In this document: positions 39,958 through 60,544 of the stretch, one piece after another | How the letters are laid out: the number at the start of each line of letters is the position of its first letter | How positions within the stretch are numbered: position 1 is the stretch's first letter | Assembly: GCA_004297075.1 (NCBI GenBank) | Contig: SCVK01000025.1 | Span: 11,139 to 75,138, forward strand | Direction: 5' to 3' | DNA length: 64,000 bases | DNA from: Chitinophagaceae bacterium | GTDB taxonomy: Bacteria; Bacteroidota; Bacteroidia; Chitinophagales; Chitinophagaceae | Program-made: the position numbers and the translations under genes | Notes under the pieces: generated by a model | Seen by the model: only the letters and a program-made list of their open reading frames with translations | Told to the model about the DNA's origin: nothing | Database searches by the model: none

Positions 39958-41016
39958 CTATTGTTTTAAACTGGCCATATCAATTACAAAACGGTAACGC
40001 ACATCACTTTTCAGCATTCTTTCATAGGCTTCATTGATATCCTGCATGTTGATGATCTCTATATCCGAAACAATATTGTGTTCACCACAAAAATCCAGCA
40101 TTTCCTGTGTTTCTGCAATGCCGCCGATCAGGGATCCGGCTACGGCTTTTCTTCCGAGAATCATGGGAACCGTATTCAGTATCGGTTCCAGTCCGCCTAA
40201 ATACCCCACCAACACCAATGTGCCGCTGATATTCAAGGTAGCCACATAGGGATTTACATCGTGTACATAGGGAACCGTATCAATGATCAGGTCAAACTTA
40301 CCTTTTACTTTACTCATCTGATCTGCATCTGTAGAAATCACCACCGCATCGGCTCCCAATCGGATGGCATCTTTTTCTTTGCCCGGTGTTCGGGAGAACA
40401 GGGTTACTTCTGCACCGAGACCTTTGGCGAGTTTAATGGCCATATGGCCCAATCCACCCAAACCTACAATAGCCACTTTACTACCCTTACCCACTTTCCA
40501 GTGGCGCAATGGCGACCAGGTAGTGATACCGGCGCATAATAAAGGAGCCGTAGCAGCCAGGTCCAGGTTGGCGGGCACTTTCAGCACAAAATGTTCATCC
40601 ACTACAATACGTTCAGAATAACCACCAAAGGTTTGTGTGCCGGAATGTTTGTCCTTGCCATTGTAGGTGCCTACAAAACCGTTTAAACAGTATTGTTCCA
40701 GATCATGCTGGCAGCTATCGCAGGTACCACAAGAGCCTACCAGACAGCCCACAGCGGCAAAATCGCCAACTTTCAGTTTGGTTACTTCGGCACCTACTTT
40801 GGTTACTTTCCCTACAATTTCATGACCAGGTACAGCAGGGTAAATGGTTCCACCCCAATCGTTGCGGGCGGTGTGCAGGTCTGAATGACAAACCCCGCAA
40901 TACAGGATCTCGATTTCAATATCTTTCGGCGTAACCGTTCTGCGCTCAATCTGCATTTGTTGTAAAGCCGCTTCGGGCGAGGCCGTTCCGAATGCTTTGG
41001 TGTTAGGTGTTCCCAT
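39958..41016 (-). CDS. Zn-dependent NAD(P) alcohol dehydrogenase (cinnamyl-ADH type)
   Basis: CGVCHSD, GHEIVG, structural Zn cysteines, GLGGLG. Start at 41016. Confidence 0.93.
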   Translation of the reverse strand: MGTPNTKAFGTASPEAALQQMQIERRTVTPKDIEIEILYCGVCHSDLHTARNDWGGTIYPAVPGHEIVGKVTKVGAEVTKLKVGDFAAVGCLVGSCGTCDSCQHDLEQYCLNGFVGTYNGKDKHSGTQTFGGYSERIVVDEHFVLKVPANLDLAATAPLLCAGITTWSPLRHWKVGKGSKVAIVGLGGLGHMAIKLAKGLGAEVTLFSRTPGKEKDAIRLGADAVVISTDADQMSKVKGKFDLIIDTVPYVHDVNPYVATLNISGTLVLVGYLGGLEPILNTVPMILGRKAVAGSLIGGIAETQEMLDFCGEHNIVSDIEIINMQDINEAYERMLKSDVRYRFVIDMASLKQ

Positions 41017-41899: not shown

Positions 41900-42028
41900 C
41901 GAACAGATGAACAGGGAACGGAAGAATGACAGCCGGTCTATACTCATATTCTCGTCTTTTCTTGGTTCTGCTTCCTCGTACATCCGTTCATCTGTTCCTT
42001 GTTCATCTGTTCGTCTGTTCATTTGTTC
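41900..42028. repeat. Inverted repeat built from GAACAGAT-type short units
   Basis: cgaacagatgaacagggaacgga (41900-41922) pairs with tctgttccttgttcatctgttcg (41991-42013); further gttcatct-like units nearby. Confidence 0.6.
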
Positions 42029-46732: not shown

Positions 46733-49096
46733 ATGATTGTAAAACTTACCAACACCCTAAAAAACAGCATTATTCTGTTCTTTCTTTCAATGGGTCTGCT
46801 TTCCAACGCACAATTTAAAGTGTCTGGATATATTATCGATTCAACAGGCTCCCGCGTTTCTTTTGCCGCTATAAATTTATCGGCCGACAGCAGTAAGATA
46901 ATTCGGATATCTGTTTCGGACAGCCTCGGCTCATTTGCCTTTGCAGGCTTGCCGAAAGGGAATTATACACTTACCGCCAATTTAATTGGTGCCCAACTTT
47001 TTTCGGGCCGGTTTCATCTGGCAAATGATACAATGCTTGTGGTAAAAGTTAAATTTACATCTTCCATCTTACAGGATGTTATTGTTACGGCCTCGAAACC
47101 TCTGCTCGAAAGAAAAATTGATCGTACGGTTTTCAATATAGGAAACTCCCTTGCGGCGAGAGGAACTGATCTCGCAACAGCGATTGGGCTTGCCCCCATG
47201 CTCAAGGTTTCCGAAAACGGGATCTCTATCATCGGCAAGAGCAGTGTTGCCGTAATGATTAATGAACGCATAGTACACTTAGGAGGATCGGATCTTATTA
47301 ACTACCTGAAATCTTTAAGATCGGATGACGTAGCAAAAATTGAAATCATTACTACCCCGCCCGCAAAATATGAGGCGCAAGGCAACAGCGGCCTGATCAA
47401 CATCGTACTCAAGAGAGATCTTTCACAGGGTATAGGAGGTAGCATCAGTACTTCATATGCACAACGGATGTACCCTGGCTTCGGCAACAACGCCAGCCTC
47501 AATTTCCAGTCGGCCAAAATAAGCGCATCGATAAAACTTCGCCATTACAACCGCAAGGGTTTTATACAAGAGCAAAATGACATAGTAGGCCTTAACTACG
47601 CAATCTTTAGCCATGATCCGCGGCTCACATTGGCCACAGGAATCGGTGCAAATACGAGTTTTGAATACAAAATCACGAATACAGGCGCAATCGGCTTTGT
47701 TTATGATGAAGGCAGCACCAATTATGAGCTCAATCTGGAAAATACCACCACATACCAGAGAAATAATGCAACGGATTCTATTTTACAAACATTGTCGCAT
47801 AGCAAAAATCCGACTGAAACACGCACCATCACATTATATTACGACCAGAAATTGGGCAGTTCTGGCAAGAAACTAACTACCGACTTAAACTATTTTTCTA
47901 ATGCGCCCATTACAAATATCGATTTTACAACACTGTCGGATCATTCATCGAATATTCAAGCAGTCAGAACGTTCAGCGGCATTCGTTACCAGATCTGGTC
48001 TGCTCAGTCCGATCTTATACTTCCGTATAAATGGGCAACAGTAGAAACGGGCACCAAATTCACCAACTTCGATAACAACTCCGATGTACGCTACAGCGAT
48101 TTGGTTGCGCAGCAATACGTGATCGACCATTCAAAAAGCAATCATTTCGATTACAATGAAAAGAATATTGCAGGTTATGTCAGTATGCAGAAAGTGATCA
48201 ACAAAAAGTGGACAGGGAAAGCGGGGCTTCGTTATGAGTACTCGATTATTGAAGGTTATTCCCCCACCACCAGTTCCCGCAATCGCTCCGAATACGGCAA
48301 ACTGTTTCCCACTGCATACCTCACTTACAAACCAGGCTCTACCCATACTGTATCCTTAAGTTATTCGAAACGAATCAACCGGCCCAATTTCCGGGCCATT
48401 AATCCGTTCCGTTATTACACTAATCCATATACTTATTCAACAGGTAACCCCTTGTTACAGCCATCGTTAACGCACAACATTGAACTCACCTGGTTATACA
48501 AAAGCTATCTTTCTGTTACATTCTATACGCAGCACCTTGATAATGGATTTGGGTACATCACACAAGTAATCGGCACCTATAAAGTGGTGGATGCTAAAAA
48601 TTTTCTGACCCAAAACAGCACTGGCCTGACCGCTACCTCAAGTATCAGATTTTTCAAGTGGTGGGAAAGCAGCAGCCATGTAACGTACAGCATGTCTGCT
48701 TCAAGTTCTACAGTAGCGGATTTTATCACAGAAAAAGGCTCACTGTTTAATCTGGGCACAAACCATACCTTCCGCATCAGCAACAAATTAACAGTTTTTA
48801 TCAATTATTCTAAAACACTTCCTGGCACACAAGGTAATACCTACCGCGCTGCCCAGTTCGATTTTTCATCCGGTGCAAGGATGCTGGCCCTCAACAACAA
48901 ACTGCAATTCACCGCATCAGCAGCATTGGGTGCGGTTGACCGATCCCGCTCATACTTCAAGGGTTATACGCAGTATGTCTACACCGATTACAATTACCGC
49001 ACCGCCAACTTCAGCCTCACTTATATTTTTGGCAGATCCAAAGTAAAAGGCAATACCAAAAAAGTTGACTTTAAGGAAACGCAGCGAACAAATTAA
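46733..49096 (+). CDS. Outer-membrane beta-barrel, TonB-dependent-receptor-like
   Basis: Signal peptide, ERKIDRTVFN, IEIITTPPAKYEAQG, RINRPNF, GNPLLQP. Confidence 0.85.
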   Translation: MIVKLTNTLKNSIILFFLSMGLLSNAQFKVSGYIIDSTGSRVSFAAINLSADSSKIIRISVSDSLGSFAFAGLPKGNYTLTANLIGAQLFSGRFHLANDTMLVVKVKFTSSILQDVIVTASKPLLERKIDRTVFNIGNSLAARGTDLATAIGLAPMLKVSENGISIIGKSSVAVMINERIVHLGGSDLINYLKSLRSDDVAKIEIITTPPAKYEAQGNSGLINIVLKRDLSQGIGGSISTSYAQRMYPGFGNNASLNFQSAKISASIKLRHYNRKGFIQEQNDIVGLNYAIFSHDPRLTLATGIGANTSFEYKITNTGAIGFVYDEGSTNYELNLENTTTYQRNNATDSILQTLSHSKNPTETRTITLYYDQKLGSSGKKLTTDLNYFSNAPITNIDFTTLSDHSSNIQAVRTFSGIRYQIWSAQSDLILPYKWATVETGTKFTNFDNNSDVRYSDLVAQQYVIDHSKSNHFDYNEKNIAGYVSMQKVINKKWTGKAGLRYEYSIIEGYSPTTSSRNRSEYGKLFPTAYLTYKPGSTHTVSLSYSKRINRPNFRAINPFRYYTNPYTYSTGNPLLQPSLTHNIELTWLYKSYLSVTFYTQHLDNGFGYITQVIGTYKVVDAKNFLTQNSTGLTATSSIRFFKWWESSSHVTYSMSASSSTVADFITEKGSLFNLGTNHTFRISNKLTVFINYSKTLPGTQGNTYRAAQFDFSSGARMLALNNKLQFTASAALGAVDRSRSYFKGYTQYVYTDYNYRTANFSLTYIFGRSKVKGNTKKVDFKETQRTN

Positions 49097-49474
49097 AATC
49101 TGTATTTTTAAACTAAACCCACCCTCTTTCCGCTATCAGTCGTCTGACCAACAACACTTGTGTGAAACAAAAGCAGGTTGTTTTGTTGTAACTATCTAAA
49201 TATGAGCATCCTGAAAATCAGACAGTTAACACTACTATATAGCCTTACCTGATTCAGCTAAAACTACAAAACCAGCTAAGGTTTAAAAAGGAGTAACACC
49301 CTCACTACAGCAAATACTTCTTATATACAAGTACCCTTATATGGCAATGTATTCCAAACCATGCAATTGCAGAAACAAAAACATCTGCGGCCAAAAGTAG
49401 AAAGCCTGCCGAATAAAATATTCAACAGGCCCAATACTTACTTTCAAACAATTTAAATGATTCTTACAGATTCA

Positions 49475-49744
49475 CTATTCTGCAGTAGTGGGATCAATAA
49501 TTGCGCTGATTTTGTTAATGGCATTTGCAGGGAAACCTCCTAATTTGGCATGTTCCCTTACCAATTCTTCATTAGGAGCAATATAAACACAATAGAGTTT
49601 ATCAGCAGTTACGAAGCTGTTCAGCCATTGAACTGAGTTCAACCTATTTAAAACAGCACAGGAAGTTTGTGAAGCTTTTTTAAGCTCTTCAGGAGTCAGT
49701 TTTCCTAATCCCGGCATCTCTCTTTCGATTAAAAATTTTGGCAT
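49475..49744 (-). CDS. DUF4242 domain protein, cytoplasmic single domain
   Basis: MPKFLIER start and DKLYCVYIAPNEELVREHAKLGGFP motif. Confidence 0.85.
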   Translation of the reverse strand: MPKFLIEREMPGLGKLTPEELKKASQTSCAVLNRLNSVQWLNSFVTADKLYCVYIAPNEELVREHAKLGGFPANAINKISAIIDPTTAE

Positions 49745-49983
49745 ATACTATTTATCCTACTCATTTGGCTTTTCGGTTACGCCCCGTTTTTACAATGGTT
49801 ACTGGTCTCCATTTATTTTTTCGCTGAAATTTCAGCAGTTATTATGCTGTTTTCTCCTTTGAAACCCTGATAAGTTAGAAAACAAAAAATTGAGCTGTAT
49901 ATTGGCAGACTGATCGGCTAACCTTGAATGCACAACTTTTTGTCTTCGATCTAACAGCTTATAGCTGATTCTCAAGATAGCTA

Positions 49984-50583
49984 CTATTGACCCTGTTTTA
50001 CTGTTTGCACAGCATTAGGCAATAAACCGTGGGCTTCTTTATGTGTTTTGATCAATGCAGCACTATCAGCAGCTTGTGCAAGACAAAAGATTACACCTTT
50101 TTTCTCATCAAGCCAGTAGTTAATCAGGTTAACGCCATACTTACGCTGAACACTCAGATCTTTTTCATGCGCCCCGGCCACTGCCTGCTCAGTAACTTGA
50201 CCAGGACCTACATAATGAAAATCCATAAAATATTGTTTACCAGGCACTTCCGGATCAACCATACTGCTTTTTACTTCATACACATCCTTTGGTAATAATC
50301 CATGCGCATGTTTATGCGCCGTAGTAAGATCACTTGCCTTACCTGCGGATGCAAGACAGTATATCAATCCTTTTTTTTCATCTACCCAGAATTTCATAAA
50401 ATCTACACCGTATTCAGGCCCTGTCTTAAGATCTTTCTGATGAGCCTCCATTACGGCGTCAAAAGTTACTTTTCCTGGCTCCATTTGATGTACATCCATA
50501 AAAAACCTCTTAGATGCACTTTTTTGTGCGAATGCCCCTGACATTGCTACAAGGAAAACTGTTGTCCAAATACTTCTTTTCAT
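49984..50583 (-). CDS. Exported tandem DUF4242 (SCO4226 nickel-binding-like) protein
   Basis: Signal peptide ending AFA, then two repeats of MDxH...AHxKD...YGV...W(V/L)DEKKG.I.CLA...HxxAHGLLP. Confidence 0.83.
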   Translation of the reverse strand: MKRSIWTTVFLVAMSGAFAQKSASKRFFMDVHQMEPGKVTFDAVMEAHQKDLKTGPEYGVDFMKFWVDEKKGLIYCLASAGKASDLTTAHKHAHGLLPKDVYEVKSSMVDPEVPGKQYFMDFHYVGPGQVTEQAVAGAHEKDLSVQRKYGVNLINYWLDEKKGVIFCLAQAADSAALIKTHKEAHGLLPNAVQTVKQGQ

Positions 50584-50616
50584 TGCGTTAATTTAATTAT
50601 GGAATATTTTACGGTG

Positions 50617-50663
50617 CAAAGCAACCATAGTTACATCTAAATAGTATAGGTAATATTCCCTAT
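50617..50663 (-). promoter_or_regulatory. Putative LuxR-type operator and promoter of the DUF4242 genes
   Basis: ataggtaatattccctat (50646-50663), 21 bp from ttgctttg (minus strand, 50624-50617). Confidence 0.6.
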
Positions 50664-50693
50664 ATTTCAAAGCCAGTACCCCATATTTCATAT

Positions 50694-53300
50694 ATGCAGT
50701 TAATCGAAAGAGAGAACGATCTATTAACACTTGCTAGTGGCATAAAAAAGATCCCTTCAGAAGGAGGGCATAACTATATCATTACCGGTGAGGCAGGTAT
50801 TGGAAAAACCATGCTGCTAAACCACTTTCTGAATAACCTCCCAACAGGAGTGAAATTCTATATTGGAAACTGCGATTCATTATCTACGCCAAGACCCCTT
50901 TCGCCCATAATCGATCTGGCTATGCAGCTAAAAATAGATTGGAGTGAACCATTTGTGAATAGCCTTTCAAGGGGTGACTTATTTAACCACTTTGCGCAGG
51001 ATCTTATCAATAAAAGAGAACCAGTAGTAATTGTTTTTGAAGATATACATTGGGCTGACGAAGCGACAATAGATTACATCAAATTTCTGGCGAGAAGAAT
51101 CAGTAAAACCAGGTGCATGTTCATTATAACATGCAGAGACACAGATTTTGAAGGAGACAGAATCCTTAGTTCCATACTAAGTGGATTGCCCAGTGATACG
51201 TATACAAGGGTACCATTGAAACCACTATCTCAAACAGCTGTGTCCCGGCTGGCAGAGCAGAAAGGTTATGATGGAGAAAATCTCTATCTTTTAACCAATG
51301 GGAACCCCTTCTTCGTCCATGAAATTATAGCCAATTATAGCCCCGGGGTTCCTGCCAATGTAAAGGATGCGGTTCTTACAGTATTTCGCCATCAGAATGA
51401 CGCTACCAAAAACTTATGGGAAATTCTTTCAGTAATCCCCGATGGTCTTAAAACCAAATTACTTTCAAAAATAGACCCAAAATGGCATGAAGCAATTGAG
51501 ACTTGCCTTAATGCCAAAATCCTCATCGCAAACAATGATAAGATACAATTCAAGCATGAATTATACAGGAGAACAATAGAAGAATCATTCTCTCCCATTA
51601 AAAAAATAAATTTGCATAAATATATACTCGAATCATTCTTCGAACTGCTCAAAGAAACAGGCGAGATAGAAAAAATAATTCATCATGCCAAAAATGCAAA
51701 CCTGGATTCAATTGTATATGAATTTGCCCCGATAGCTGCCCAACAGGCCAGTATTGCGGGTGCACACCTCGAAGCTTCAAAATTATACCTGACGGCAATT
51801 AAGTATGCTGGAAAAAGAGGAGAAACTGAACTTGTAGAATTGTATAAATCTTATGCATATGAATGCTACTTGACTAATCAAATTACCGAAGCTATTCTAT
51901 ATCAGACCAACGTATTCGAATTGGAAAGATTACAAAATGATATGGAAGATACGGCCAGTAATCTTCTGTTTCTTTCTAGGTTATGGAGGCTTGAAGGGAA
52001 TAACGTAAAGACAGAAAAATGTGCGATACAAGCCATTGAAATGTTGAAAGATTTGCCTGCCTCTGAGGTGAAAGGGATGGCATTCAGCAACTTTTCTGAG
52101 GTTAAAATGTATTCTGCCAATACGCTGGAATGTATTGAATGGGGAGAAAAAGCATTGGCTATCGGCCGGGAGATCAATGATAATGTAATCATCAGTCACG
52201 CTTTAAATAATATTGGATCAGCTTTATGGAGGCAAACAAAAGATACAGCCAAAGGGGAACAATTTCTATATAAAAGCTTATCAATAGCATTCGAACATAA
52301 TTTGGAAGTAGATGTAGAAAGGGCCCAAACCAATATTATATTTAGTTTAATAATAGTAAAAGAATATAACAAAGCTCGTAGCCTGCTCACTGAAAACAAC
52401 CTGTATTGTGAACAACGAAATCTAAACACATCAAAACCCTTTACATTATATTTAGAAGCCCGGATATTATTGGAAACAGGTAATTGGAACGAAGCAGATT
52501 CAATAGCCGATAATCTTATAAAATACCAGGTTCATCCGGAAGCAGTAAGAATTGGAGCACTTACAATAGCTGCGGTTCTCAAGTTACGTAAAGGGAACCC
52601 CGAAGCAGAGATTTGTCTTGTCACAGTTAAAGAAATGGCATTCAAAACAAAAGAATACCAAATAATTATGCCCGTTGTTACGGCTATTTTAGAATACGAA
52701 TGGCTCTCAGGGAAAACACTACTTTCAGCTAAAGAATTAGAAACCTGCTTTAACCTGATTGCCCGTGTAGATTGTGGCACTGCCAATAGTGAATTTGCAT
52801 TTTGGTTTTATAAATCCAGAAAAACAAAACTGGCAATTAAAGAGCCATACACTCCCTATAAATATATTCTCGAAAACAAGATCACAAATGCGGTTATTTT
52901 CTGGGATGAACTGGGCTGCCCCTATGAAAAAGCCATTACACTATTAGATGGGGATGAAGAAAATAAAAAAACGGGATTGATGGAACTACAAGAGATGGGC
53001 GCGACTGCCATCTTTGAAAAAGCAAAAAAAATAGTACGGGCTGCAGGTATTCGCAGAATTCCAAGGGGCAAAAGAGCTAGTACAATAAGCAACCCGGCTC
53101 ATCTCACTAATAGAGAAATTGAAGTTCTGCAATTATTACAAACAGGGAGGCAAAATAAAGAAATTGCTTCCTCTCTATTTATATCAGCTAAAACAGTTGA
53201 TCACCACATTTCTTCAATCTTATTTAAACTGGACGTTAACTCACGAAACAAAGCTGTAGCCGAAGCGGTTAAACTTGGAATTCTACAACAGGTCAACTAG
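50694..53300 (+). CDS. STAND (AAA) ATPase-TPR-LuxR regulator (LAL/MalT-like)
   Basis: Walker A GEAGIGKT, Walker B IVFEDIHWAD, GNPFF, TPR-like HALNNIG, C-terminal LTNREIEVL...NKEIA...KTVDHHISSIL HTH. Confidence 0.92.
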   Translation: MQLIERENDLLTLASGIKKIPSEGGHNYIITGEAGIGKTMLLNHFLNNLPTGVKFYIGNCDSLSTPRPLSPIIDLAMQLKIDWSEPFVNSLSRGDLFNHFAQDLINKREPVVIVFEDIHWADEATIDYIKFLARRISKTRCMFIITCRDTDFEGDRILSSILSGLPSDTYTRVPLKPLSQTAVSRLAEQKGYDGENLYLLTNGNPFFVHEIIANYSPGVPANVKDAVLTVFRHQNDATKNLWEILSVIPDGLKTKLLSKIDPKWHEAIETCLNAKILIANNDKIQFKHELYRRTIEESFSPIKKINLHKYILESFFELLKETGEIEKIIHHAKNANLDSIVYEFAPIAAQQASIAGAHLEASKLYLTAIKYAGKRGETELVELYKSYAYECYLTNQITEAILYQTNVFELERLQNDMEDTASNLLFLSRLWRLEGNNVKTEKCAIQAIEMLKDLPASEVKGMAFSNFSEVKMYSANTLECIEWGEKALAIGREINDNVIISHALNNIGSALWRQTKDTAKGEQFLYKSLSIAFEHNLEVDVERAQTNIIFSLIIVKEYNKARSLLTENNLYCEQRNLNTSKPFTLYLEARILLETGNWNEADSIADNLIKYQVHPEAVRIGALTIAAVLKLRKGNPEAEICLVTVKEMAFKTKEYQIIMPVVTAILEYEWLSGKTLLSAKELETCFNLIARVDCGTANSEFAFWFYKSRKTKLAIKEPYTPYKYILENKITNAVIFWDELGCPYEKAITLLDGDEENKKTGLMELQEMGATAIFEKAKKIVRAAGIRRIPRGKRASTISNPAHLTNREIEVLQLLQTGRQNKEIASSLFISAKTVDHHISSILFKLDVNSRNKAVAEAVKLGILQQVN

Positions 53301-53438
53301 TTAAGTATCCCACAGGTGCAAGGCCAGTCATCTTGCGCACCAACAGCTCAGAACATACAAAACCAGCATTTTCGTATTACTATAACTCCATTCTTACTAA
53401 AAGTAAAGCCAGCACAGTAGGTGAAGATGTTCGGAATT

Positions 53439-53876
53439 CTATCGGAAATTGAATTCCAGATATTTAAGTCTTGCACCGATACCAAATGTATCTATATGAT
53501 TGGATGTACCAATATTCTCCAGTATATATATAAACCCTACTTTTAATACTGAAGTATCATTATCAGGAACTTCTTTTTCGATACTAATGGGATTGAATTT
53601 AGAAGGCACGTCTTTTACGCGCATTGCAGGCAATGTCGAATCCCAGAGAATACGGTTTTGTCTGTTTGCCATGTGCAGCGTAAATGTAACCATGCTGCTA
53701 TCTGATCCTAAAACAGACTGGTCCCCGTAGAGAATATACCGCACTTTTCTATTTGCCTGCGTTTTGGCAGATGCGTACCCGGACTGGTCAATATAGTAAA
53801 CCTGTTTCTTGCATGCCACCATGCATTGAAATACTATTGCAACTACCCCCATTCGGAAAATCACCCGATTTCTCAT
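53439..53876 (-). CDS. Hypothetical lipoprotein
   Basis: Basic N-terminus, hydrophobic stretch, VACKK lipobox. Start codon uncertain. Confidence 0.65.
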   Translation of the reverse strand: MRNRVIFRMGVVAIVFQCMVACKKQVYYIDQSGYASAKTQANRKVRYILYGDQSVLGSDSSMVTFTLHMANRQNRILWDSTLPAMRVKDVPSKFNPISIEKEVPDNDTSVLKVGFIYILENIGTSNHIDTFGIGARLKYLEFNFR

Positions 53877-54021
53877 TAGCCTACTTTTTAATAAATGATA
53901 CACTTATAATATACAACCTGGGCGAAATGCCTCACGCAACAATTAATTCTTAAATTGGGGCCAAACGTTATCGTATAATACACATTTATATTAACGAACC
54001 CAATTGCTTATAAGCGTATTG

Positions 54022-54068
54022 CAAAAAGAAGAACTATTCCGATGAAAGAAATAGGGAATTTACCCTAT
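54022..54068 (-). promoter_or_regulatory. Second LuxR-type operator and promoter
   Basis: atagggaatttaccctat (54051-54068), 21 bp from tctttttg (minus strand, 54029-54022). Confidence 0.6.
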
Positions 54069-54411
54069 TTTACAAGTTCCTGAACCCTTAACACTTAAAA
54101 CAACCTCTGGAAGACAAAAATAAAAAGAGCAGAAAATATCTCCGTGTAAAGCTTGCTGACAGGCTGCTTATAGTTATTATGCAAATATGCTGTTCCCCTC
54201 ACTCAAATTTCTGCAGCACTATTTTGGTTTTCGTTCGAACATCACCGGGTAACATTTATTGTAAAATCGAAGATTTTGCAATAAAATCGTCCGCAGGCTA
54301 TTGGGCAATGCGTACAACCTATTGGTAAAGGAGCCCTTATTGAGATGCAAGTAATAATTGCCATCAAATAGGCAATCGTGAACTATACATTACTCTAACG
54401 GCTAATTATTT

Positions 54412-55305
54412 CTACCCTTGGGCTCCCCCTTTTCCAAAACCAACTGTGGCTCGATAAGCCTGGGGAGATACATCCGCATTTATTTTAAAAAAACGGCTAA
54501 AATAATATTCATCTTCATATCCTAACTCATAGGCAATCTCTTTCACCGTTTTATTTGTCAGATACAATTCTCTTTTTGCCTCGATTATTATCCTCTCATT
54601 GATCAGGCTGGAAATCGTTTTATTAAAATGTGATTTTGTGATTTTTGCCAGTGCCTTAGAAGAAATAAACAACAAATTTGCATACTCACTGGCAGAATGT
54701 TTAGTTCTGAAATTTAATTCGATAGCATCTTTTAATTTTTGAAGTATAAAAGGTTCAGTTTTATCATTTGTAGTAGCAAACTTAACCGATTGCTGTTCGA
54801 TTTTTAAACGGGTGGCTGTTATTAAGAGTATCTTGAGATAGGTTACTAACAACTCATATTGTGCCGGGGCAGGGTTCTGCATCTCGGTTTTTATCTGATC
54901 GCACACCATGGCAAATGTGGCGGATGCTTTTGCATCAACGTTAATAAAAGGCGGCAGGAAGACATTATTATACAGTACTCCATTCAACTCAAGATCCTTA
55001 TGGTGTTTATGTATGCAAAAGAAGTCGAAATGAAAATAGATCGCAATTCCATTAATCGGCATATCAGCAGAAATCATATAAGGCTGATAGGGAGCAAAAG
55101 AGAACAGGCTGTTTTCTGTAAAATCATATTCACTAACATCGGCCTTGACTTTGCCACTTCCATTGGTAACCCAGATAAGGGAAAAGAAATTATTTCTTTG
55201 AATTTGATTGAAATAGGAATTGTCCGCAAATGAAAAAAGCTTAAACGCCTCACTTCCGTTTAGCGGGTTTACCATGGTAAAAGAAGTTGGATTAAGCATG
55301 CTCAT
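54412..55305 (-). CDS. AraC family regulator
   Basis: Cupin-like N-domain and C-terminal VKEIAYELGYEDEYYFSRFFK. Start at 55305. Confidence 0.92.
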   Translation of the reverse strand: MSMLNPTSFTMVNPLNGSEAFKLFSFADNSYFNQIQRNNFFSLIWVTNGSGKVKADVSEYDFTENSLFSFAPYQPYMISADMPINGIAIYFHFDFFCIHKHHKDLELNGVLYNNVFLPPFINVDAKASATFAMVCDQIKTEMQNPAPAQYELLVTYLKILLITATRLKIEQQSVKFATTNDKTEPFILQKLKDAIELNFRTKHSASEYANLLFISSKALAKITKSHFNKTISSLINERIIIEAKRELYLTNKTVKEIAYELGYEDEYYFSRFFKINADVSPQAYRATVGFGKGGAQG

Positions 55306-55327
55306 TGTTTCGGAAATTAAAAATAGG

Positions 55328-56584
55328 TTAATCACTGTATTTTTTGAAAATACTCGTAGCGATATGTCCACCAAAACCAAAAGTATTATTCATCGCATAT
55401 TTAATCTCTTTTTTTACGCTCTTTCCCAAAGTCAGATTTAAAAAATCAGTGTACGTTTCATCAACTTCTTGGGTATTGATTGTTGCTGGTACTATTCCTG
55501 ATTCAATTGCCTTAATGCAGATAATAGCTTCAATGGCACCAGCGGCTCCCAAAAGGTGCCCTGTCATGGATTTTGTGGCACTTATATGCAAATCCTTTCT
55601 TATCGAAAATAGCCTTTTCATTGCTTTTAGTTCACTGTCATCTCCCATAGGGGTAGAAGTGGCGTGCGCATTGACATATTCAATCATTTCTGGCCCGATT
55701 TCAGCATCATTCAAAGCATCCACCATTCCCAGATAGGCCCCTTCCCCTTCGGGATGGGTGCCGGTTAGATGATAAGCATCAGCCGCCATTCCTGTACCCA
55801 CAATTTCGGCAAATATTGGTGCCCCTCTTTCCTGGGCACTAGTAAGACTTTCAATGACCAATGCGCCGGCGCCCTCCCCTATTACAAACCCGTCCCGTTT
55901 ACGATCGAAAGGCCTGGATGCTGCCTCCGGGCTTTTGTTATTAATTGATAAAGCCCTGGAAGCATTAAATCCTCCAACAGAGGCTTCGTTAATGGGTGCC
56001 TCAGATCCACCCGTAATGATCAAATCTGCCCTGCCTAACCGAATATAATTACAGGCATCTATAATAGCATTATTTGATGAAGCGCAGGCAGATACGGTGG
56101 AAAAGTTGAGTCCATGCAAGCCATGCCTGATGGATATAACACCTGAAGGGATATCAGCAATCATCTTAGGAATAAAATAGGGGTTAAACCTGGGTTGCTT
56201 ATTATTGGCGAAATATTCCAGTATTTGCTCCTGAAATGTCTGAATACCCCCATTTCCTGAACCCCAGATTACGCCGACCCGGGCTCTGTTTACTTTATCA
56301 AAGTCGATACCCGCGTGCCTGATGGCCTCATCCGAAGCTGCAACGGCATACTGGGTAAACAAATCATATTTACGCACCTCATTCTTTTCAAAGTAATCAG
56401 AAGGTGAAAAACCTTTGATCTCAGCGGCTATTTTGGTTTTAAAATGAGTGGTATCAAATTTTGTAATCAGGTTAACCCCGCTTTTTCCAGCAACAATATT
56501 TGACCAAAACTGATTCACTGAATTACCCAAAGGTGTGATGGCCCCCATTCCTGTAACAACTACCCTATTCAATTCCTTTAGCAT
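55328..56584 (-). CDS. fabF: Beta-ketoacyl-ACP synthase II
   Basis: RVVVTGMG and Cys-His-His triad in SACASS, NAHATST, TGHLLGAAG; FGFGG. Confidence 0.92.
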   Translation of the reverse strand: MLKELNRVVVTGMGAITPLGNSVNQFWSNIVAGKSGVNLITKFDTTHFKTKIAAEIKGFSPSDYFEKNEVRKYDLFTQYAVAASDEAIRHAGIDFDKVNRARVGVIWGSGNGGIQTFQEQILEYFANNKQPRFNPYFIPKMIADIPSGVISIRHGLHGLNFSTVSACASSNNAIIDACNYIRLGRADLIITGGSEAPINEASVGGFNASRALSINNKSPEAASRPFDRKRDGFVIGEGAGALVIESLTSAQERGAPIFAEIVGTGMAADAYHLTGTHPEGEGAYLGMVDALNDAEIGPEMIEYVNAHATSTPMGDDSELKAMKRLFSIRKDLHISATKSMTGHLLGAAGAIEAIICIKAIESGIVPATINTQEVDETYTDFLNLTLGKSVKKEIKYAMNNTFGFGGHIATSIFKKYSD

Positions 56585-56615
56585 AATTAATTCGTATTAT
56601 TTCAAAGTCTATTAA

Positions 56616-57248
56616 CTAATAGTCAATACCCGATTCTTTCAATCGGGTTTTTAAATCCCCTACTTCTTCTTCCAGTTTTGCCAACTGTTTGATTTTAGGA
56701 GCAAATGCATCCTGAATTTCTTCTAAAGAATAGCGTTGGGTAATATGCTGGGGACAATTCCAGTCGTAAGCCTCAATGTTAAATACCATCATTCTTTCAG
56801 GGCGAAACTTGTAATCAGCTATATCTAACAGGTTATATAAAGCGGCATTATCCTTCAGATCAACTACCTCTGCTTTGGCATATATTTTTAGCCGGGCCTT
56901 TGCCGGATAATCCATCATAAACAAAGCTACTTTGTTATTCGTCGTAAGATTACCTACAGAAATATATTGTTTGTTTCCCGTGAAGTCGATAAACCCAATC
57001 CGGTACGGATCTAATACCTTAATAAACCCTTTGGGGCCACCCCTGTGCTGGATATACGGATACCCTGATTCACCTATTGTTGACAGGTAAAAACTATCTC
57101 TTCCGGAGATAAAATTGATTTCATTTGCCGATAATCCATCGATGTAGGAATCCCTTTCCATCCTGGCATAACCATTCCGGCTACCAGATTTTACCTGCAA
57201 CTGCTTTGCAGCATCAGAAAAGGCGATAGCCCCGAAATTTTTGGCCAT
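56616..57248 (-). CDS. Pyridoxamine 5'-phosphate oxidase-like FMN-binding protein
   Basis: PYIQHRGGPKGF, DFTGNKQYISVGN, DWNCPQHIT. Start at 57248 (MAKNF). Confidence 0.87.
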   Translation of the reverse strand: MAKNFGAIAFSDAAKQLQVKSGSRNGYARMERDSYIDGLSANEINFISGRDSFYLSTIGESGYPYIQHRGGPKGFIKVLDPYRIGFIDFTGNKQYISVGNLTTNNKVALFMMDYPAKARLKIYAKAEVVDLKDNAALYNLLDIADYKFRPERMMVFNIEAYDWNCPQHITQRYSLEEIQDAFAPKIKQLAKLEEEVGDLKTRLKESGIDY

Positions 57249-57258
57249 AATAAACAGT

Positions 57259-57429
57259 TTACTTACTGGCTTTGATTTCCTGTTCCAAAACCTGATCCCA
57301 CAAACTATCGCCACATTCATCACTGTTGATCACCTGTACATCCGTTTCCATGTGTTTTTTAGTAGATTCTGCATCCACGGTGGCAGAAATATTTTCGCTA
57401 ATCGGGCTACCCGTTTGTTTATCTTCCAT
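57259..57429 (-). CDS. 56-aa acidic small protein missing from the ORF track
   Basis: MEDKQTGSP...ECGDSLWDQVLEQEIKASK; fills the gap between co-directional genes with 16-bp and 10-bp spacing. Confidence 0.6.
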   Translation of the reverse strand: MEDKQTGSPISENISATVDAESTKKHMETDVQVINSDECGDSLWDQVLEQEIKASK

Positions 57430-57445
57430 AATTTAATAGTATAGG

Positions 57446-57856
57446 TTATAATCTACGCTCAGATTCTTTAATGGGAAGATCATTGATACTGGCATAACGT
57501 TTTCGCATTAATCCATTCTCATCAAACTCCCAGTTTTCATTACCATAAGCCCTGAACCATTGGCCGTCAGCGTTACGGTATTCGTACTCGAATCTTACGG
57601 CCATTCTGTTTTCCCGAAAACCCCAAAGCTCTTTTTTAAGCTTATAATCCAATTCTCTCTCCCACTTAGACTTTAAAAAAGATTTAACAGCTTCCCTGCC
57701 ATTAAGAAAATCGGTTCTGTTTCTCCATTCTGTATCGATGGTATAAGCTAAACATACTTTTTCAGGGTCCTTACTGTTCCATGCATCTTCTGCAAGCTGA
57801 ACCTTTTGAAGAGCTGATTCCAGGGTAAAGGGAGGTAGCGGGTGTTTTTGTTCCAT
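57446..57856 (-). CDS. DUF1348 / NTF2-like (SnoaL-like) protein
   Basis: PLPPFT, AEDAWN, WRNR and [13 protein letters not shown] motifs. Confidence 0.88.
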
Positions 57857-57866
57857 TATGGGTTTA

Positions 57867-58490
57867 TTATGATAAACAATCGGTACAATAGATATTTGTA
57901 CGTACTAATAATTTTGAAATGTCAAGTTCTAGTGATCTTTGCTGATCTTTAGCATACCACAAATGCAGGGCCTTTGAGTAGTCATTTGCTGTCTTTGGAT
58001 CGGATTTTAATTTCTTCACTAGTTGCTGAGCCTCATTCGGCCTTGGCCCCCATATACCCGTTAGCTGAAAATTCGTGTCCAATTGGATCAGCTTCGGGAT
58101 CGATCTGGTTTGATTAGTCAGAAAAGCATCCATCAGTTCAGGATTTTTATCCCGGTAAACCAGTTTCATCTCAATTTTACCTTCACTGATCACTGCAACC
58201 TTGTTTAAAACAGGCAGGATCTGTGATGCATCACCACACCAGCTTTCTGTCAGCACCAGCCAATAAACTTTGTGAGGTAGTCTTTTAACTTTTTCAACCA
58301 GCTCGGCTGAAACCATATACGTTTTCTCTATCCGGTACATTCGTATCTGGTTCATCTCAATATACCCCTGCACAACTGGATCTTCATTCAATACAAGCTC
58401 AGCTGCGACCTGCTGCCTGTAGGTTGCGTAATCAACCCCGGTATCCATGTACTTTTTAAAGTCAGACCTTTTTAATCTATTGATCTCCAT
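57867..58490 (-). CDS. Thioredoxin family protein (WCGD type)
   Basis: [20 protein letters not shown]; additional C-terminal CTDC. Confidence 0.85.
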
Positions 58491-58533
58491 ATCCCTTTTA
58501 TTTAGTTCTGCTTATCGCCCGGCATTCATCGAT

Positions 58534-58589
58534 CAAAATTGCTTTAAGCAAACCAGAAACAAGATGGATGATTAGCGCAATAGGATGGA
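58534..58589 (-). promoter_or_regulatory. AraC-type tandem site plus -7 element
   Basis: atgga at 58564 and 58585 (21-bp period), 22 bp from caaaattg (58534-58541). Confidence 0.6.
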
Positions 58590-58766
58590 TTTTTTTACCC
58601 ATACCTTTCAAGATCTCCTGTCCGGATATTCAGGTGTATATTGAAAAGCTCCACTTTCACCGGCGGTATTTACAAACAATTTTCCACCACACGGATTATG
58701 CGTCCTGAATAGGGGTGCCGCCCTGTATTCAACCGGCGAGGGGTCGGTGTTCCACTAAGAAACCTG

Positions 58767-58800
58767 AAAAAGCAGGCTGTATATTTTCTACAGCCTGCTT
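58767..58800 (-). terminator. Intrinsic terminator of the CMD gene
   Basis: aagcaggctgta/tacagcctgctt stem with T tail on the minus strand. Confidence 0.75.
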
Positions 58801-58828
58801 ACTTGTATCCTGCTGATGGTTGGATGTA

Positions 58829-59359
58829 TTATAATGGCGGGGCCAAAGGAAAATCAACGGGCACCTTGGTAAGATTATGCAGATAGTTCATGGCTGTTTT
58901 ATCACTCACCTGCAATACCAGGTCCACAAGATTTTCATTTGTATAACCCTGGGCAAAAAAAGCATCCACTAATTCCTCATCAGCATTGCCTCTGTTTTTG
59001 GTGATGCTTGCTGCTAATTGTACCAATGAGTTCAGCCGAACATCTTCGGATTTCCCCCGGCGTATATCAACCAGTTGCGCATCTGTAAAGCCGTTCATTT
59101 TACCAATAACGGTATGCGCACTTTGGCAGTAAACGCAGGAATTTACCTGGCTAACGATCAGGTTTACTGCTTCCTTTTCCCTGTTAGTAAGTGAGGTCTT
59201 CGCATTCTGGTAGGCAAGGTATTTACCAAGCCCACTTGCTGAATAGGCAATAGTTGCATACAAATTAGGAACAAAGCCCAAAGCCTTCTGTAAGGTATCA
59301 AAAATAGCCTGGTTGGCCGGAGTAACCTGTTCCCTTGTAGGAACTGCAAAATTTTTCAT
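58829..59359 (-). CDS. Carboxymuconolactone decarboxylase / AhpD-like peroxidase
   Basis: GFVPNLY and SQVNSCVYCQSAH (CxxCxxxH). Confidence 0.9.
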   Translation of the reverse strand: MKNFAVPTREQVTPANQAIFDTLQKALGFVPNLYATIAYSASGLGKYLAYQNAKTSLTNREKEAVNLIVSQVNSCVYCQSAHTVIGKMNGFTDAQLVDIRRGKSEDVRLNSLVQLAASITKNRGNADEELVDAFFAQGYTNENLVDLVLQVSDKTAMNYLHNLTKVPVDFPLAPPL

Positions 59360-59396
59360 GTTTTTGTGTTAATATATTTTGTCAATATTGACAGTA

Positions 59397-59452
59397 CAAA
59401 ATTGTTCTGTAATGATTATCCGTAAAATGGATCTATTACGCAAAGTGATGGA
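59397..59452 (-). promoter_or_regulatory. AraC-type tandem site plus -7 element
   Basis: atgga at 59427 and 59448 (21-bp period), 22 bp from caaaattg (59397-59404). Confidence 0.6.
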
Positions 59453-59581
59453 GATATTTTCGGCCGGTCAGATCAGAAAAAAAACAGGGCAATCCAACAC
59501 CTTATCTTTTTTTGCAGGGTCTTTTCAATTACTCATCTTCGAACAGTGCAAACTGTTAAAACCCGGGTCAGGAGCCCCTCC

Positions 59582-60544
59582 CTATTTAATGCCTCTCCTG
59601 TTTAAGAAATCCTTGATCAGGGATGCCGCTTCCGTATGCTTTTCTTCCAGTACAAAATGTCCACCATTCAATAAACTGATTTGCGCATCTTTTATATCTT
59701 TCTTAAAAGCTTCTGCTCCCGGATAGGTAAAAAGTTTATCATTCTTGCCAGAGATGACAAGTGTGGCTGGCTGATATTTTCTGAAATAAGCTTGCCATTT
59801 TTCGTATAAGGGAAGATTGGTTGCATAGTTCCTGAATAACGTTAACTGAATCTCCTCATTACCCTGGCGATCCAGGTAATGCTGATCCGTAGTATAACTG
59901 TCGGGACTGATTTTGCTTGGATCTTCGGCCCCATCTGTATATTGCCATTTCGTTCCTTCTGCAGAAAGAATACCTTTTGCAGCTTTGATGGTTTCACTGT
60001 TCGGGTTTTGAATATACTTTACCAATGGTTGTAGGGCCTCACCCAGTCCTTCATTATAAGCGTTGGCATTCTGTATGATTAGGGCCTGAATAGAAGAAGG
60101 TCTTTGACTGGCAATCCTGAACCCTACAGGTCCTCCATAATCCTGCATATATAGGCTGTATTTCTGAAGGCCCAGTGCATCAATGAGCTGAGTAACAATA
60201 GAAGACAGGTTGTCAAAACTATAGGCAAATTCAGAAGGAGATGGTGAGGCACTTTGCCCAAACCCGGGATAATCCGGAGCAATCAAATGATAACTATCTG
60301 CAAGATCTGCTATCAGATCCCGGTACATATGTGAGGATGACGGGAACCCATGCAATAAAAGGATAGTTGGCTTTGATTTATCACCGGCTTCACGATAGAA
60401 AACATTCACTCCTTTGATAGTAATTGTATGGTAGTAAACGGGGCTTCTGGACATATCCGGATTTGGATTACCCGTAGATGCATAAACTTCCGGTTGCAGA
60501 ATACTGCTGATTATCAGGATAACTGATAGAATTCTTTTTTTCAT
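59582..60544 (-). CDS. Exported alpha/beta hydrolase (epoxide hydrolase/haloalkane dehalogenase-like)
   Basis: Signal peptide, HGFPSSS, QDYGG Asp nucleophile, GGHF. Confidence 0.87.
   Translation of the reverse strand: MKKRILSVILIISSILQPEVYASTGNPNPDMSRSPVYYHTITIKGVNVFYREAGDKSKPTILLLHGFPSSSHMYRDLIADLADSYHLIAPDYPGFGQSASPSPSEFAYSFDNLSSIVTQLIDALGLQKYSLYMQDYGGPVGFRIASQRPSSIQALIIQNANAYNEGLGEALQPLVKYIQNPNSETIKAAKGILSAEGTKWQYTDGAEDPSKISPDSYTTDQHYLDRQGNEEIQLTLFRNYATNLPLYEKWQAYFRKYQPATLVISGKNDKLFTYPGAEAFKKDIKDAQISLLNGGHFVLEEKHTEAASLIKDFLNRRGIK

Follow-up and report, generated by a model that had tools for sequence, protein, structure and literature searches.

STAND switches include MalT and NLR immune receptors. 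MalT of Escherichia coli and the regulators of the LAL family are composed of an NTPase module, an arm, a TPR sensor, and a LuxR-type DNA-binding domain. MalT is reported to multimerise upon binding of its inducer and then to bind cooperatively to several operator boxes beside the promoter (PMC4381067, PMC6468293); in this process, the arm toggles between the nucleotide-binding domain (NBD) and the sensor and couples inducer binding to the opening of the protein (PMC4381067). Protein inhibitors of MalT, namely MalK and MalY, are also documented and are described to stabilise the resting form (PMC6468293, PMC4381067). In the DUF4242 family (PF14026), SCO4226 of Streptomyces coelicolor (Protein Data Bank (PDB) 4OI3/4OI6) is reported to bind four nickel ions per dimer with a Kd of 10 μM and to be induced 2-3-fold by nickel (PMC4186839). 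Here, we have analysed positions 49475..54068 of a 64-kb stretch of DNA (64,000 nucleotides, hereafter the window) from a Chitinophagaceae bacterium, of which the genome assembly has 4,074,383 bp and is 83% complete. At this locus, the gene for a STAND NTPase-arm-TPR-LuxR regulator is divergent from those for two DUF4242 proteins, namely an exported protein with two domains in tandem (the tandem protein) and a cytoplasmic single-domain protein (the single protein), and a lipoprotein gene lies beyond the regulator gene. This regulator very likely acts as an activator through a predicted operator of paired half-sites; we furthermore see an even chance that it does so for the tandem and lipoprotein genes while a cytoplasmic DUF4242 dimer docks on its arm as a ligand-gated brake. 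The component families are already known; a literature search without most subscription journals gave no paper on the regulator-DUF4242 linkage, on the operator, or on a DUF4242-STAND contact.

A scan with the tandem protein returned 33 loci, from which two short fragments were dropped and one locus encoding a 98% identical tandem protein (L034) was set aside. In the 30 loci that were counted, the regulator gene is divergent from the tandem gene in 20 and missing in eight, and the contig ends too early in two. The operator was found in all of the 20 loci with the regulator vs none of the eight without it, by a pattern that was written after viewing these very loci. Also, a single-domain DUF4242 gene is located directly behind the regulator in 16/18 loci with room for it. 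When 200 genomes of the family were searched, 12 were found to have the regulator (13 copies), with the tandem gene divergent at 12 and the single gene behind at nine of the 13 copies; a fixed operator pattern matched 10 of these 12 genomes (including one used in training) vs 7 of the 188 without the regulator. Its matches in the regulator-bearing genomes occur once each and always at the divergent promoter (reversed control: 5/201), and in the genome under study it hits only site B, which is upstream of the lipoprotein gene. Across the phylum, the regulator is rare (1/400 genomes), and the one genome equipped with it (G678) has a row of the regulator, the half-site pair, cytoplasmic and exported DUF4242-type open reading frames (ORFs), and a lipoprotein-like gene. 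Eight distant homologues of the regulator are on plasmids, four of which have the half-site pair beside them: those of Rhizobium and Deinococcus have an annotated DUF4242 neighbour, that of Streptomyces has the pair before the start of an ORF resembling DUF4242 by eye, and that of Terrarubrum (L216, 1752-2174) has it before a GFA-family gene and not a DUF4242 gene, which might hint at a chemistry of thiols or aldehydes. The most constant neighbour of the regulator across phyla is the cytoplasmic DUF4242 gene, and the exported targets vary. The linkage proposed from this one locus in an earlier, sequence-only reading of the window is thus borne out by the neighbourhood counts in family genomes, tandem loci, and other phyla.

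We also noticed variations around these modules. Accessory genes recur in the module operons of L089, L061, L098, L233, L042, and L054; they encode a lipoprotein-like family of 190-215 amino acids (aa) with no Pfam hit, an exported family of 175-182 aa with one weak PepSY-like hit, and BNR-repeat proteins of 510 aa with a type IX secretion tail. In L055, L057, L090, and L096, the regulator gene is apparently frameshifted or interrupted with the operators and DUF4242 genes remaining, which could be either assembly error or decay. In L061 (121-2566), single DUF4242 genes from two different subclades are present; between them are a gene for a ydhR-like monooxygenase and, by eye, an AraC-like fragment, and the second single gene has a half-site pair to itself.

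As the operator, the sequence-only reading had proposed a shared palindrome, ATAGG-N8-CCTAT, accompanied by a related half-site. All of these elements are present: the two copies at 50646 and 54051 are 15/18 identical, each is 21 bp from a TnnnTTTG element on the minus strand, and ccccatattt is at 50679; the whole genome has four copies of the palindrome, two of which are at this locus. The palindrome was, however, rejected as the conserved unit. In 22 sites from other genomes, the unit is asymmetric with the left arm ATAGGG intact in 19 and the right arm CCTAT in only five, and the element conserved upstream of the orthologues is a direct repeat of two ATRGGG half-sites at 21-23 bp, two helical turns apart and at a fixed promoter geometry; ccccatattt is now read as the distal direct repeat of operator A. 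What stands from the proposal is hence an activator-type site at a fixed distance from the promoter, which tracks the regulator. Such pairs at 21-23 bp are found upstream of 25/26 regulator-linked single genes (shuffles: 6/6800). When the Bacteroidota -7 box is placed at -12 to -5, as described in PMC9723704, the proximal site spans -51 to -34. The canonical TA is absent from the -7 box in 22/22 sites, as would be expected for activator-dependent promoters.

A weight matrix trained on those 22 sites retrieved sites A and B alone across the 4.07-Mb genome, so that no wider regulon was seen by this genome-wide search of the 83% complete assembly. With the operator columns alone, 32 places score at least 12, among which B ranks first and A eighth, and in the top 15 places the -7 box is present only at A and B. 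L034 has an identical block of 42 bp around site B, with diverged flanks and without the distal half-site of operator B at this spacing. Since the distal half-site of operator A is next to the regulator start codon, autoregulation may be possible. Operators of PAS-LuxR regulators (PimM-type; CTVGGGAWWTCCCBAG) are described to have, likewise, a GGG...CCC core over the -35 region that is bound by a LuxR-type helix-turn-helix (HTH) (PMC9774167); they are, as described there, a single palindrome with a four-base spacer, whereas in the present operator the spacer has six bases, the right arm is degenerate, and there is a further direct repeat. In several high-GC loci with the unlinked single type (L102, L105, L125-L127, L138, L147, L151, L164, and L168), we noticed a different direct repeat, GGACGATCGG-like, upstream of the match, which suggests that another regulator controls the small DUF4242 gene in those loci.

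The regulator itself has the sequence features of a STAND protein. Its Walker A (G32-T39, GEAGIGKT) and Walker B (V114-D122, VFEDIHWAD) motifs are intact; in 149 aligned rows, G35, G37, K38, E116, and D117 are invariant, D122 is kept in 99-100%, the sensor R148 in 100%, and the winged-helix H288 in 99%, and a GNP motif is found at G203-N-P205. By profile, the best structural relative is PH0952 of Pyrococcus horikoshii (PDB 6MFV; E 3.7e-23), with which the regulator aligns over the NBD, helical domain, winged-helix domain, and arm (including its nucleotide-binding oligomerisation (NOD) core) and over the TPR region; the profile also matches other TPR proteins, and Pfam TPR_12 is below its cut-off (24.8 vs 30.1). 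The C-terminal LuxR HTH (PF00196) scores 65.2 bits vs a cut-off of 23.5. In architecture and motifs, the protein is the same as MalT and the LAL family. It is, nonetheless, not a MalT orthologue, as the NCBIfam MalT equivalog NF003420 gave 50.9 bits vs 537 and in the HTH region only, and its operator and targets differ from those of MalT/LAL. The spacing of the half-sites would be compatible with multimerisation and cooperative DNA binding, for which MalT offers a parallel. Taken as a whole, the module is likely a MalT/LAL-like activator with feedback by a partner protein.

In terms of targets, a regulon of three genes had been claimed. Control of the tandem gene is very likely and that of the lipoprotein gene at this locus quite probable, but the cytoplasmic gene has no operator. 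Among 22 aligned homologues of the lipoprotein, at least 90% have the lipobox Cys, and homologues are found in 15/300 family genomes; in the first 200 of these, they are present in 6/12 genomes with the regulator vs 5/188 without it, kin genomes not being independent. Inside a module, the lipoprotein gene was found at 2/20 other loci, namely in the operon behind the tandem gene (G140) and behind the single gene (G211), and at the remaining lipoprotein loci, of which ~6 kb on each side were covered except for one contig-end fragment, no regulator or site was found. The lipoprotein was hence rejected as a core part of the module, and it is plausible that it is a local target, one of several optional envelope add-ons; further families of exported proteins or lipoproteins are each seen at 3-6 module loci. 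A fold search with its model yielded weak beta-sandwich rows but nothing at E ≤0.001, and an atlas search placed it in unnamed Bacteroidota clusters. In G112, a homologue of this lipoprotein is 3.1 kb from a module of an AraC-type regulator with a DUF4242 domain, which is described below.

The single gene departs from the plan of the family in being located 3' of the tandem gene and in lacking an operator. Neither the 130 bp upstream nor the genome-wide matrix gave any site for it, and direct operator control was rejected; without an operator of its own, the gene would be reached by the regulator through read-through only. The encoded protein is a clear DUF4242 member (88.2 bits vs a cut-off of 28.5), in which E7, R8, P11, G12, one Cys, and one His are invariant among 39 homologues; it does have the two Cys residues that had been pointed out, but only one of them is the invariant Cys. 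In this single type, Glu-Arg is on strand 1, and the Cys and one His are shared with the tandem type. No solved relative was found by sequence search. Its identity is 62-72% to a widespread type not linked to the regulator vs 44-56% to the regulator-linked copies; judged from these sequences, a copy from another lineage appears to have taken the place of the original operator-driven partner gene here. An integron-cassette origin was considered and rejected, as RYYYAAC is absent on either side.

Just before the start codon of the single gene is a DUF805 RNA motif (Rfam RF03081), which had been overlooked in the sequence-only reading and matches over its full length (positions 1-68 of 68) with 85.5 bits vs a cut-off of 51.1. 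The motif reportedly comes from a survey in 2017. It is not named in the main text of PMC5737381. The same type of single gene has it in 3/38 loci scanned (L034, L006, and L162), and it was found in 0/8 regulator-linked ones; in the family, 45/149 genomes have the motif, with varied genes downstream in 12 of the 30 loci that could be parsed. In position, the present copy is the same as the catalogued leader, no difference was found, and it is not a fixed part of the module.

A contact between DUF4242 and the TPR domain had also been suggested for structure prediction, and we modelled the regulator-linked pair of a relative (L036) as a complex of regulator residues 1-790 and a dimer of the single protein, with alignments for both proteins. 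The complex scored 0.73 and the best of three controls 0.00; the score mark is reached by 116/157 solved complexes and 2/215 mismatched pairs, counts that apply to the present model in rough terms only. At least 90% of the contacts are shared between runs, and the predicted local distance difference test score (pLDDT) of the partner is at least 84. In the model, contacts are made by the PG loop (residues 9-17) and residues 49-50 and 73-76 of the DUF4242 dimer and by regulator residues 297-305, 333-336, 370-373, 398-402, and 612-613. As the arm spans ~300-417 by the alignment to PH0952 and the domain limits given for it in PMC6468293, most of the predicted contacts are on the arm; the suggested complex thus passed, but mainly with the arm and not with the TPR sensor. 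For MalT, MalK is described to contact the NBD and sensor (PMC6468293), whereas the partner predicted here is a 90-aa ferredoxin-fold dimer on the arm. No such complex is present among the structure-profile matches of the regulator. The regulator of the present locus keeps P301, K333, N334, N336, Y371, E399, and I401 of the patch. Based on the model, it is somewhat probable that the cytoplasmic DUF4242 partner binds the regulator in the relatives, and for the present genome the chance falls just short of even.

Several observations weigh against the docking reading and, in part, against a uniform module. Some regulators have no adjacent single gene (2/18 loci with room and 4/13 copies in family genomes), 4/8 distant regulators have neither DUF4242 nor the half-site pair nearby, and the strict half-site pair was found in 17/34 regulator-upstream regions. 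The modelled pair is from L036 and not the divergent single protein of the present genome, which a quick tree (92 columns; metagenome rows chosen for closeness to the single protein) places on the opposite side from all 26 linked copies (SH-aLRT 98), and the regulator was found in 0/80 metagenome loci of its closest relatives, many of which are short. The regulator of this locus matches the linked consensus at 11/20 interface positions, with E370K and R304K. Also, the interface is no more conserved than the whole arm in 20 linked regulators (0.78 vs 0.77) and is variable in the distant ones (0.37 vs 0.51 overall), and the PG loop is not specific evidence because unlinked DUF4242 proteins keep it too. 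The sign of the feedback, furthermore, is favoured in neither direction by the present data. A charge swap (regulator E370K with Glu9 of the partner) was rejected, as Glu is found at both positions in several linked pairs and the swap is hence not specific.

Alternatively, the regulator might be an ordinary one-component activator, in which its own TPR region senses the ligand and the DUF4242 proteins are pure outputs, either scavengers or enzymes, with the complex being a false positive or lost here. An activator-type promoter before every linked single gene is what an output gene would have, the present locus tolerates a single gene of a different lineage, the interface shows no excess of conservation, and the inducer of MalT is described to bind its TPR-type sensor (PMC4381067). 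We nonetheless regard this as unlikely, since the complex and control scores are so far apart at a mark rarely reached by mismatched pairs and it is the cytoplasmic DUF4242 gene that stays constant across phyla.

The same predicted interface would also serve a co-activator or a detachable sensor subunit, in which a ligand-loaded DUF4242 dimer pulls the arm off the NBD and gives positive feedback. The dimer could bridge two protomers, and DUF4242 is fused N-terminally to AraC-type regulators in the family, a sensor-like position. Operators are kept, however, by regulators without an adjacent single gene (L038, L063, and L098-L100), and the partner proteins of MalT described in PMC6468293 and PMC4381067 are inhibitors; we thus consider a co-activator improbable, and a brake is modestly preferred to it by analogy with MalT. 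Concerning the fused form, we noticed a second type of module (L222, 2889-4553, and many family genomes), in which a regulator of 365-385 aa with an N-terminal DUF4242 and a C-terminal AraC-like region adjoins an exported single-type DUF4242 gene. In G112, the N-terminal domain of such a regulator has the full residue set of the tandem type, and the two DUF4242 types hence recur together with swapped locations. Ten AraC-fusion domains retrieved by a pattern in which the His/Asp/Cys set was required were left out of consideration, as their count is circular.

The tandem protein scores 118.6 bits with PF14026 (cut-off 28.5), and the motifs listed for it by the sequence-only reading (MDxH, AHxKD, CLA, and HxxAH) are each present twice; D-x-H, H-x-x-D, C, H, and H are kept in both domains in 37/37 sequences. 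Its model (pLDDT 96) is best matched by SCO4226 (4OI6/4OI3; Z 14.8, root-mean-square deviation (rmsd) 1.3 A, 81 aligned; 1.1-1.3 A over the comparisons), followed by dimeric alpha/beta barrels, which score at levels usual for proteins that share a fold; sulfur oxygenase reductase (6QPA; Z 9.9, rmsd 4.0 A, 169 aligned, 8% identity) is tied with several other barrels. SCO4226 and the tandem protein have D6, H8, H23, D26, C51, and H65 in common. As the dimer core of SCO4226 is described to consist of M5, W41, Y50, L52, and V78 (PMC4186839), the alternation along strands would make D6, H8, and C51 face the helices with H23, D26, and H65; the tandem domains would thus hold a pocket in their interior, apart from the nickel sites on the surface.

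Given that SCO4226 binds nickel, is induced by it, and is the closest structural match of a His-rich tandem protein, the regulator might sense nickel or another metal with both DUF4242 proteins sequestering it. We consider this detoxification role very improbable and the least likely of the readings, and the analogy with SCO4226 that had been drawn earlier is weak. Only 2/9 side-chain nickel ligands are kept in domain 1 (H23 and D43), the site called conserved by the authors of SCO4226 (D43, S46, and H76) is broken with H76 = Tyr and S46 = Lys, and the NCBIfam nickel-binding model NF033706 is not reached by the tandem protein (90.9 vs 125) and gives no hit with the single protein. The nickel structure is reported to be from a soak in 0.8 M NiSO4 (PMC4186839), and SCO4226 is also reported to be under PhoRP control (PMC4991794). 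Furthermore, those neighbour families that recur over the 44 module and tandem loci and were scanned in Pfam are exported proteins, none of the 26 scanned being a metal-transport family. SCO4226 differs also in adjoining phoU-phoRP instead of a STAND regulator, and the proteins here are an exported tandem form and a subtype with Glu-Arg instead of Asp-x-His.

In the mechanism that we propose, with a partner docked on the arm as a brake, an inducer would open the nucleotide-binding module as in MalT, and the multimer would bind both half-sites and recruit RNA polymerase at weak promoters. The DUF4242 dimer is predicted to dock on the arm with its conserved PG loop and, in the weakest step, would keep the regulator off, as MalK or MalY does MalT, until its Cys/His pocket is occupied by a small ligand; induction of the partner gene would then give negative feedback. 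Outside the cytoplasm, the exported tandem protein may bind ligands of this class, or turn them over, in its His4-Asp2-Cys pocket. At the present locus, the single gene would be reached by read-through from promoter A, led by the DUF805 RNA. The features of the locus are listed in Table 1.

Table 1. Positions of features at the regulator-DUF4242 locus (coordinates of the window)
Feature	Positions	Strand	Basis or remark
Terminator-like hairpin, 3' of single DUF4242 gene	49402..49432	-	Folding z-score -3.05
Cytoplasmic single-domain DUF4242 protein, 89 aa, PF14026	49475..49744	-	ORF and Pfam; candidate regulator partner
DUF805 RNA motif (RF03081), structured leader, ends 5 nt before ATG	49750..49817	-	Covariance model
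Tandem DUF4242 protein, 199 aa, two PF14026 domains, signal-peptide-like N-terminus	49984..50583	-	ORF and Pfam
Degenerate Bacteroidota -7 box TTGCTTTG, promoter A; predicted start ~50612	50617..50624	-	Weight matrix
Operator A, proximal site, centre ~-42.5	50646..50663	-	Palindrome and matrix
Operator A, distal half-site (direct repeat), 21 bp upstream of proximal, 5 bp from regulator ATG	50679..50688	-	
STAND NTPase-arm-TPR-LuxR regulator, 868 aa (AAA_16, TPR, GerE)	50694..53300	+	ORF and Pfam
All-beta lipoprotein, 145 aa, unnamed Bacteroidota family, occasional module accessory	53439..53876	-	
Degenerate -7 box TCTTTTTG, promoter B; predicted start ~54017	54022..54029	-	Weight matrix
Operator B, proximal site; top operator-only score genome-wide	54051..54068	-	
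Weak candidate for a distal half-site of operator B (TAAGGG), 22 bp upstream	54085..54090	-	

The ORFs, domains, and divergent arrangement are as originally claimed, as judged by the ORF list and Pfam. The likely start of the lipoprotein ORF is ATG 53876 and not GTG 53903, and the signal peptide of the tandem protein and the lipobox of the lipoprotein were assessed by eye. A sigma-70 promoter scan of the locus was at chance level. Contigs of four metatranscriptome runs from one study, which were picked for holding this DNA and one of which also covers much of a control stretch, span the tandem and lipoprotein genes as well as the gap that leads to the single gene; the strand and the unity of the transcript are not visible in them. 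At 41982-42028 and 40091-40140, short stretches match many unrelated contigs of the RNA runs and are probably a repeat or a conserved motif.

Convergent with the single gene is a gene for an outer-membrane beta-barrel (TonB-like) protein (46733-49096, +), which is not at this place in L034; in L054 and L061, homologues with 26-27% identity are located 3' of the tandem gene, and no operator was found upstream of the copy here. On the other flank (54412-60544, -), a row of genes encodes an AraC regulator, a ketoacyl-synthase-like ORF (by eye), and PNPOx-like, DUF1348, thioredoxin-like, CMD-family, and alpha/beta-hydrolase proteins, which looks like a redox or stress cluster; its AraC gene was not found in L034.

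In conclusion, we propose, with rather more doubt than belief, that a widespread branch of STAND activators takes its input via a detachable 90-residue DUF4242 dimer on the arm, the gene of which is activator-controlled, and that DUF4242 is a ligand-sensing module, fused in the AraC-type regulators and free here, but not a nickel sink; in the present genome, the partner would have been swapped under an RNA leader. If the docking is wrong, a well-supported, ordinary set of regulator, operator, and targets with uncharacterised genes remains. The operator consensus provides a ready reporter for the search of an inducer. If the proposal is true, STAND switches would have a new control point in a small soluble partner that docks on the arm, and PF14026, with one studied member, would gain a concrete role.

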